Assembly: GCA_963514005.1 (NCBI GenBank)
Contig: OY740807.1
Location: 20,646,001-20,710,000 of the forward strand
Direction of reading: 5' to 3'
DNA from: Raja brachyura
Taxonomy: Eukaryota
DNA: 64,000 nucleotides
Below the pieces are notes generated by a model, which made no database searches, was not told the origin of the DNA, and saw nothing but the letters and a program-made list of their open reading frames with translations. Position 1 is the stretch's first letter; each line of letters starts with the position of its first letter. Below, in pieces: positions 30,701 through 33,700 of the stretch. The position numbers were made by a program, and so were the translations under genes.

Positions 30701-33700
30701 TATCACATACCAGCCCCTGTTTCATTCCTCCCTTTCACTGTTTCACATTGGCTATGTGCCCTCTATAATCTCAGTCCTAATGCAGGGTCTCAACCCGTAA
30801 TGTCATTCGTCATCTTGCCTCCACAGATGCTGCTTGACCCACTGAGTTCCCCCAGAAGTTTTTCTCCGGTTTCTCGCATCTGTAGTCTCCCGTGTCTCCA
30901 TTGGGTCAGCAGAGTTTTAATTTCTTCCAATTTCAATTTAACACCATTATGCATACAAAACTAAACTCTATGCAAAAAGTTGCTACGATGTCCATTTAAA
31001 ATAAAAAGTGAAATTGTTATTGCTTCTCTTTATAAATGAATGTACATCATTGCTTTTGTTTTATTGCATGGCACCTGGGCAGAATAGAGAGGTTTTGTTA
31101 ATTCAAGTGCATGTTAAAACAATGATTTTTTTTTTAACACGTTCTCTGTACTGGTCAGCACATGAAATACTATTTCAAATCACTTGTTTTAAGAGGAAAT
31201 CAAATAAAAATTACCTGAAATTGATTTAATGTAAAACAAATTTACTGATCTGCGAATTTGGATAAAGGTTAATAATGTTCATTGATTTGTAGAAGACAAA
31301 TTAAAGGGATTCTGAGAGGAAGTTGGAATATTAGTATTAACTGGGGATGTATTTTGAGAAAATGATAATAAATAATGCCACATACAAGATTTATAATATC
31401 ACCTTCAGCTTTTAAATTCAGTTTAGTATTAATTTCAAATCTGTACCAGAAAAATGAAGTTGACACGACACTGGATGCATTACTTATCCTTGATCAATGA
31501 GTTTTAATTGACCAGTTCGGCTTTTATTAATTATAGACATGACTGCCTGAACATGTCCTTTATCTTTTCACTTTCACTGACTGAAGTACCTGTTGCATAA
31601 ACTACATTATAATTGTCCAGCAAATCAGTTTCCAGATTATACCAAATACCTAAATCACTTACCCCTTAGACATTGTTCATTAACTTGTTGGGGATAGCTA
31701 CATTAAGTAATAACGGTCATTTAACATATAACTTGATTAAAACGAGCAAAGATGCTAAAATAAAAATTGTGAGGGCCATCATGCATTAAACTAAAAGCAG
31801 GTTGGCAAAGGCCTCGCCAATTTCAAGTTTAAAGAGAATTACTTTCCTTGTGTTTGTTGTACTTGCACTAACCAGGTAAGGTGTTATCACGGTCAGATTA
31901 TTTACGATTAATATGCATCTTAATACAGCTAAGTATCAGTAAAAATAGAGACCATGCATAAGTTCACTAATGTTCCTTAATGGAAGGAAATATAACACAA
32001 TAAACTGTTCAGAGCAATGTCAGACTGCTATCCCCTGACTAATTGACTCTTCGATGCATTCTGCTGTGGCCTAGTAAAAATCCACTTGTACCAGATCACT
32101 ACAAAGAACGGGGAACAATTGGTCAATAAGATGGTCCGCCAGCATTATTGCAAAGAAACCAATAACAGCCAGCCTTGCCAGGAACATCTATATACTAAGA
32201 ATATTTATCCAATTTATCAGAAGGTGAAATTTGTACCATTCTTAGATATTCGTGTCTGTTCAGTTGTCATCAGTGACGAGTCCTGGCCTCCACTTACTCA
32301 ACTCTTGTATAATTTAATTTTTCACTTCCATTCGATATGATGGAGAATAATCACTTAGGCACAATGCATATTTGTACAGAAATCAAAAATAGGCAGATTT
32401 CAATGTACTGTGTCTTCACAATTTTTAACATCAAATTTGCTTTATTCATCAACTGGTATAATTTTAGTTGGAAACGTAAGAGGAGCAGGTGAAACACAAT
32501 GAACTGTGTTTTCACGCCCATTGCCGAGATGGGCATTTGATCAACAAGGTGATCACATGCTTTTGTAAATCTTCCCTGGCATTAGATTTATTGACCAAAT
32601 CACAAGCAGTTTCCATAATAGCGAACAGCTGACTGTCAGATCACCATCCAGGTGTAGGAGAAGGGAAAGCACATGGAGTATGCATCTTTACATTCAGTCT
32701 TGCCTTTCACTGTCTGTCTGCATATTTTGTTTACAATTATAGCACAATTTTGGGTCTCAGTATCCAAGGACCTACCCTAAAAATGGCACACACCCTCTGT
32801 TGACAATTTCCAAGCCTGGGAAATCATATAGTTTTCTAAATGCTGATTAGGTTGGCAACAGAATTTGCTAAATAGTTCCCATAGAGTTAACTTTCCCTAT
32901 TAGAAATTATCCATAAGGTGTTCTGGTTGTGTCACCCATTCTCTCATCGACAGCTTCCTTTCCCTCTCTGTGTGCTATTTGTCACCTGTGAGCTTCCCAA
33001 TGTGCATATGATCCATGTGCACTTTCTGTTGTCCTCAGCCAGTTGTCTTGTAATGTAATTGCAATGCATGCAGATGGGCTTTTATGTTTAACAAAAGTTT
33101 TCTTTTATTGAGCATTTTGCGAATGAAATATCATGGCTGCAATGTTTGAGCATTTAAAAAAAGAGGAAAAACTAACAGTTAGCATCAAGTGAAAAGGCAC
33201 GTTACTAAAGAGTCACTGTCTCTTTCCCATACTGCACTCCAATGTGGAGAATATTGTTTTCTTTTATTATTGCACTCCTATCAGTGGTTAAAAGGTAGGT
33301 ATTTATTTGCCTTGGCACGCAACACATCTGCAGATGAGTCTGTTAAAGCACCCTGGCTTGAAGTTAAATCTATTTGATTTCTATTTTATAGGTTGATTTT
33401 TTTTCTTAATTTTCTGGTTCTTCTGCTTCATTTATTAATCCTCCCATAAACCCCTGCTCTGAATTTGTGTTTTATTAACCTTCATGTTCTTTAGAGTTGT
33501 TAAGATGCATATCTGTGTGTCGTTTGTAGCATTGATCCATGAATGATGCCTTTTAAGCCATTTTCTTTTATTTCTCTTATTTTCAGTCGCTATACTAACA
33601 TATGTAGTAGCACCCTGAATATAGTGGTTGTTTGTTCTTCTCTAACTATAGAAAATTAAAAAAAGGGAAAGATCTCAAAAAGTAAAGACCAAATGTATAT

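Follow-up and report, generated by a model that had tools for sequence, protein, structure and literature searches.

The window, that is, the whole 64-kb stretch of DNA analyzed here, contains the 3' portion of the SRRM3 gene of a ray-like fish, and the exons and intronic elements of this gene described below are on its forward (+) strand. The segments 16843-16893, 20899-21006, 23096-23315, 36979-37325, 47045-47299, 54232-54369, and 60111-60317 can be joined into a continuous open frame through the SRRM_C/eMIC domain, most of which is encoded by the exon at 54232-54369 (Pfam PF15230, E 1.6e-15), preceded by the coding exon at 47045-47299 and followed by the last coding exon at 60111-60317, which reaches the stop codon. 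The assignment of the gene to SRRM3 in the original prediction was borne out by the SRRM_C domain, by cwf21-type exons located upstream of the window on the same contig, and by Narcine SRRM3 as the nearest named protein, which was also the only one matched in protein searches with single exons of the window (two exons as queries).

Two of these coding exons, a 220-nt upstream exon (23096-23315; 77% to Narcine SRRM3) and a 347-nt downstream exon (36979-37325; 78% to Narcine bancroftii SRRM3), flank the intron under study. This intron, 23316-36978, is in phase 0 after the Asp codon that ends the upstream exon, at a junction position common to vertebrate SRRM3 proteins. Compared with the window exon, the SRRM3 proteins of Narcine and Callorhinchus carry about nine extra residues, including Cys-Cys (23170-23200; P0001). 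High-copy repeats were observed at about 25600-26260 and 27800-28000, and long open frames at 13790-14512 and 52741-53478 (+) lie inside introns; we take the latter to resemble fragments of LINE reverse transcriptase.

The only other eMIC exon of the genome is on contig C30 (PF15230, E 5e-14). This paralog is probably SRRM4, judging from sequence resemblance: its exon presumably resembles human SRRM4, and its first Atlas match was SRRM4 (0.83, a lead only). The downstream exon of the paralog gave no usable Atlas match, and the cwf21 motif was not found in the 200 kb around the paralog.

The original prediction had placed a frame-shifting 10-nt microexon in the SRRM3 intron, and on re-reading the sequence all of its letters were present. 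This candidate, microexon A, occupies 33285-33294; its 3' splice site (33252-33284) consists of a pyrimidine tract, a TGC at 33271-73 (-14), and a CAG acceptor with its AG at 33283-84, and its donor is GTAGGT (33295-33300). The layout is that of neural microexons that depend on SRRM3/4, namely a length of 3-27 nt between AG and GT, a UGC near the 3' splice site, placed between the AG and a pyrimidine tract that lies further back, and a strong donor. Translation of A included between 23315 and 36979 confirmed the predicted frameshift: 33 new residues are followed by the out-of-frame TAA at 37068-70 in the downstream exon, upstream of three junctions and of the eMIC, and 255 nt before the end of that exon and the next junction.

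The rarity of this arrangement was estimated with a microexon rule that required YAG, at least 70% pyrimidine, TGC at -5 to -20, a length of 3-27 nt, and a donor score of at least 7.5 of 9. Microexon A was the sole match in the window, both strands considered. In order-2 Markov shuffles the rule gave 0.21 matches per 64-kb strand, with at least one match in 20 of 100 shuffles, and 800,000 strand-bases of background from the same chromosome contained none (4 when the donor threshold was set to 7, and 4 when the TGC requirement was removed). The motif is thus uncommon by itself and not decisive, and its rarity is weak evidence alone because the thresholds were fixed after site A had already been seen. 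A repeat origin was ruled out, since the site is single-copy in the genome and no tandem repeat is present there. Another strong pyrimidine tract with a CAG at 33584-86 (33560-33610) lies 290 nt after A, with an in-frame stop after three codons and weak donors, and a skate contig piece covering 33498-33749 shows few differences there (6/252); by its sequence it is possibly a further acceptor. Its candidacy as the counterpart of the protein tail found in fish was dropped once the second microexon described below had been found.

This second candidate poison microexon, microexon B, was overlooked in the original prediction; it lies 3.1 kb downstream of A and is better supported. It is embedded in a conserved intronic element (36277-36634) that comprises a branch-point-like motif, conserved TGC at -56 and -45, a long pyrimidine tract, and the downstream flank. 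Counted from the first AG (GAG, 36415-17), B is 17 nt long (36418-36434) and is followed by the donor GTAAGT (36435-36440). The alternative 20-nt register of other vertebrates would start at 36415, which in the window is preceded by TG instead of AG. In the region 36412-36417 the window has ATG, whereas the paralog and L083, a metagenome contig resembling vertebrate host DNA, have AAG; with this change the first AG becomes the GAG, and B is therefore 17 nt. The AAG acceptor of B present elsewhere has thus been lost in this ray, leaving the rare GAG, and we may speculate that A carries more of the load. With either length, a TGA arises across the junction, from the last two bases of B and the base that opens the next exon; this stop lies 346 nt before the next junction.

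The sequence around B is a deeply conserved non-coding element, and B is conserved more deeply than A. L083 matches 36277-36634 with 74% identity over 387 columns (E 2e-56) and encodes an EGIPLY tail in 20 nt that stand cleanly between AG and GT. The surroundings of B share 81% identity over 144 columns (E 5e-28) with the paralog, and a three-way alignment with L083 was also made. Besides the site itself, a genome-wide search with these surroundings found only the paralog site, 11.7 kb upstream of the paralog's eMIC exon (82%, E 1e-21). The paralog form is 16 nt long (C30:36978215-36978230), lies 580 nt before the next exon, and leads to a stop 300 nt before the junction. In the metagenome scan, 8 of the 9 matches had no similarity past the 18-mer, and L083 ends before site A. 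RNA structure was ruled out as the cause of conservation, as no significant fold was detected at either site (four sequences, z -1.5 to +1.2). Within 20 nt of its AG, B has no TGC; the motif occurs at -45, -56, and -77. According to the available part of 10.1101/2024.09.17.613571, 74-79% of SRRM3/4-dependent microexons have a UGC between branch point and AG, and the motif is not strictly required.

Proteins of other vertebrates bear on B directly. Among the 203 proteins collected, six (P0117, P0119, P0123, P0127, P0158, and P0162) terminate directly behind the conserved Asp with a tail of six residues, of the EEMPLF/EGIPLY type. EEMPLF was found in gene models of opossum and goshawk, and a duck gene model has the same tail with flanking Lys and Trp; EGIPLY was found in three proteins from transcript assemblies, which group with teleost SRRM3. 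Such a tail takes six codons and two further bases, and its stop is completed by the base that opens the next exon; this implies a 20-nt exon, and the back-translated tail pattern with a strong donor occurs at a single place in the skate intron, 36415-36434, and nowhere in 800,000 background strand-bases. At the sequence level, the 20-nt form of B fits as the source of the truncated SRRM3 found in bird, opossum, and fish. Gene models of goshawk and duck (P0110, P0124) end in Pro-Pro-Ile directly after the same Asp junction, which by sequence suggests a possible third truncating exon in birds.

The mouse exon MmuEX6021616 of Srrm3 is probably B, as judged from its length and position, where we presume from the mouse gene layout that its intron is equivalent to the window intron. 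Table S2 of PMC8797185, of which part was available, lists it as 20 nt long, 1,026 nt before the next exon of a 10,957-nt intron, and in the group eMICsens, whose inclusion is lower upon Srrm3/4 knockdown in N2A cells or upon Srrm4 knockout in both cortex and hippocampus; there the exon is graded "sensitive" and not "dependent". Like B in the window, it is a frame-shifting microexon near the 3' end of a long intron, with the length of the 20-nt B form; it differs in that the window B has 17 nt and a GAG acceptor, and the mouse exon is known from a table row that carries no sequence. The distances from the upstream donor would also suit A (9,969 vs 9,911 nt), but B fits the length, the peptide, and the flanks, and we regard the agreement as coincidence. 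The available part of the PMC8797185 tables contains no row for a human SRRM3 exon, and the "Srrm4" places inspected there are sample names.

Of 23 sequencing runs listed, none is on record as RNA and five were guessed to be RNA; reads from four of these five (X16-X19), of two related species, were also inspected. Over 23000-37400, X16 and X17 each showed contigs of equal depth on both flanking exons, and repeat-derived rows filled the tables of junctions and loose ends, among which no junction with A or B appeared. One X18 contig ends exactly at 36979 and one X19 contig exactly at 23315; these hint at branches, and unspliced intron explains them equally well.

For A, conservation was observed in the comparison with the paralog and is modest. 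When the surroundings of A were aligned to the matching 23.3-kb intron of the paralog, a 14-nt candidate (G000:C30:36969675-36969688) was obtained, in the same order as in SRRM3, and its reciprocal best match was A. This counterpart opens with an in-frame TGA and has a TGC at -9, a CAG acceptor, and a donor similar to that of A; it is the sole UGC-bearing candidate among the six listed for the paralog intron and passes the strict rule exactly at its thresholds. An 11-nt motif outside the rule, at 33233-33243, contains a first TGC at -52 of A and is identical at -53 in the paralog; it occurs once in the window, once in the 200-kb paralog locus, and once in 1,000,000 background strand-bases. A 12-nt AG..GT candidate lacking TGC lies 1.4 kb before it, at G000:C30:36968218. 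The match between A and the paralog scored above all 80 background 10-kb pieces in three of four scoring schemes, and shuffled queries attained its score in 0, 0, 1, and 2 of 100 trials under the four schemes. In a test of 209 tiles of the intron against the paralog intron, with the top 32 compared with 40 background pieces, six tiles exceeded their own background maximum: four over B, the tile of A (27 vs 21), and one at 23706 (25 vs 23). Among the top 32 of 209 tiles, the margin of the A tile was the largest after three tiles covering B. Tile 23706-23835 is thus slightly above background as well. Genome-wide DNA searches in both directions did not return the match between A and the paralog, which was detected by targeted alignment only.

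These data allow the question of whether A is more than a trace of a former exon. B might be the true conserved poison exon, with A a decayed or rarely used relic or an exon-like protein-binding motif that is unspliced in this animal, and several observations agree with this. Under the fourth, BLAST-like scoring scheme, 3 of 80 background pieces reach the score of the paralog match. None of the 203 proteins, three of which are chondrichthyan, contains the product of the window A (or of the window B). The 11-nt motif was picked after the alignment had been seen, just as the rule thresholds were picked after the site. Against this, both paralogs retain the AG, the GT, the TGC, and a length that is not a multiple of three. 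A skate contig piece upstream of A (33057-33227), which ends short of the exon, has 2/171 differences compared with 4.8% over 8 listed pieces, a selected subset (P 0.006, uncorrected). Further, the ray-finned fish proteins P0156 and P0196 (RefSeq Erpetoichthys isoform X3) end in an 11-residue tail, and the pattern of its first three codons and final Val-Gly is found once in the intron, at 33273, and 2 times in 800,000 background strand-bases, with the spacing chosen post hoc. As a weaker lead, the acceptor of these proteins would fall at the TGC position of A in skate. Taking both sides together, we consider that A is an unlikely relic; given its conservation in the matching intron of the paralog, it is likely a real splice element under selection.

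Computation of the inclusion forms gave a common outcome. All six forms (10, 17, 20, 22, 10+17, and 10+20 nt) run into a stop upstream of the eMIC, and this stop precedes a junction by 255-350 nt. Rescue of the frame through inclusion of both microexons was rejected, because 10+17 and 10+20 are multiples of three, yet an in-frame stop is present. Under the usual rule, nonsense-mediated decay (NMD) acts on messages with a stop more than 50-55 nt before a downstream junction; as the stops here lie at least 255 nt before one, all six forms comply, and NMD is predicted. The lengths vary between versions (A, 10 vs 14 nt; B, 17, 20, and 16 nt), none is a multiple of three, and each version leads to a stop, which fits selection for disruption of the message rather than for the peptide.

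The truncated products could nevertheless be stable: through escape from NMD, or with A as a terminal exon, short SRRM3 isoforms that have cwf21 and the N-terminal Arg/Ser region and lack the eMIC might act as competitors or have a separate role. Truncated forms were common enough to be represented in three transcript assemblies and in several gene models, and P0156 and P0196 read through the donor-like Val-Gly into a stop. The added peptides are short and poorly conserved, their exon lengths drift, and the distance of the stops from the junction points to decay instead, so that stable isoforms appear very unlikely to explain the locus.

Our preferred reading is that A and B are poison exons of a negative feedback, through NMD, in SRRM3 and in the probable SRRM4; this reading has in our estimate a somewhat better than even chance of being correct. 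When SRRM3/4 activity rises, A and B would be included more often in the mRNA of SRRM3 and probable SRRM4. Inclusion would bring a stop upstream of the eMIC domain, the premature stop would direct the mRNA to the predicted decay, and decay would cap the level of the regulator itself, in a feedback that is both self- and cross-limiting. Feedback is the best mechanism at hand because activating microexons is the function of the host protein, the canonical UGC layout is present in A, and the probable mouse counterpart of B is sensitive to Srrm3/4. It supposes that B and the mouse exon are the same, that A is spliced and needs SRRM3/4, that the messages with the stop undergo NMD, and that the protein level is measurably limited by the loop. 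The original prediction had proposed autoregulation through the 10-nt exon; the idea has since gained outside support from the deeper conservation of B, the truncated proteins, and the eMIC-sensitive mouse exon, none of which comes by way of A.

Both microexons might instead be real conserved poison exons run by other factors, such as RBFOX, PTBP1, or core spliceosome activity, with SRRM3/4 tuned from outside. Downstream of B by 390 nt, and 135-155 nt before the downstream exon, two TGCATG motifs stand 14 nt apart (36825-36844); the same pair and spacing are present in L083, to which 36807-36863 has 79% identity over 57 nt, and one such close pair occurs in 800,000 background strand-bases. We take TGCATG to be an RBFOX-type motif. 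In the paralog, a single TGCATG lies about as far from the downstream exon (C30:36978657). B also combines a long, pure pyrimidine tract with the lack of a proximal TGC, and in view of this lack and of the conserved pair downstream, other regulators may matter as much as SRRM3/4. Expression data add to the case for outside control: in human cancer lines, SRRM3 mRNA with active SRRM4 versus an inactive mutant was 1.83 vs 0.85, 0.75 vs 0.05, and 0.98 vs 0.36, and in induced versus uninduced tumours it was 1.44 vs 0.05 (PMC7935315, from the part available). The rise upon SRRM4 overexpression is thus 2- to 15-fold in three lines and 29-fold in tumours, at low values, and its sign is opposite to that of the feedback; it possibly occurs via relief from REST. 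Also against the feedback, the expression of srrm3 was unchanged in zebrafish srrm4 mutants, according to the portion of 10.1101/2024.11.29.626094 at hand. The TGC kept at -14 of A and at -9 in the paralog, the fall in inclusion of the mouse 20-nt exon upon Srrm3/4 depletion (PMC8797185, as far as available), and the compatibility of co-regulation with feedback lead us to regard control purely from outside as improbable.

Poison-exon autoregulation is a textbook class of mechanism for SR proteins, which limits the surprise of the feedback proposed here. Lareau et al. are said to have described, in 2007, poison exons in ultraconserved elements of SR-protein genes. SRRM3 resembles those genes as a splicing regulator with deeply conserved, stop-creating cassettes that are predicted NMD substrates, and differs in that its cassettes are microexons, the very class the host gene activates, in that there are two of them, both common to the paralogs, and in that their self-regulation is proposed. 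Most SRRM3/4-dependent neural microexons keep the frame, according to the available part of PMC13281805, whereas A and B break it and B lacks a proximal UGC. In Drosophila, a 3' poison exon/last-exon switch of Srrm234 under Elav/Fne (PMC8797185, in part) likewise lets splicing decide whether the eMIC protein is produced; the fly switch sits at the 3' end under the control of Elav, and its effect in neurons is to turn on the eMIC, whereas A and B are mid-gene and would turn it down.

The literature searched, which did not extend to subscription papers and VastDB, contained no text on self-regulation of SRRM3/4 by a poison microexon, and among the matches listed from the supplements of PMC13281805, PMC12626424, PMC9303857, PMC7935315, and PMC12868881, in the parts available, there was no row for an SRRM3 exon. 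B is probably already catalogued in mouse and is present in some bird and marsupial gene models; for A, the paralog copies, and the feedback reading, no earlier description was found in that literature. We see about an even chance that the ancestor of SRRM3 and SRRM4 gained, before the duplication, a pair of poison microexons within a single intron with which it sensed how active it was, that both paralogs kept them with at least one surviving to mammals, and that an undescribed self- and cross-limiting loop thereby sets the dose of neuronal microexons.

The dose of these regulators appears to matter. Heterozygous Srrm4 mice show autism-like traits, according to the available part of a review, and sensitivity to the SRRM3/4 level differs among microexons (10.1101/2024.09.17.613571, in part). 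In the part of PMC8797185 available, vertebrate eMIC expression is described as transcriptionally controlled, and no explanation of how vertebrates steady the SRRM3/4 dose was found in the literature searched. If the reading is true, a poison microexon that the protein of its host gene activates would serve directly as a homeostat of the SRRM3/4 dose, and the two precise sites in the SRRM3 intron would offer a possible handle for raising or lowering SRRM3/4.
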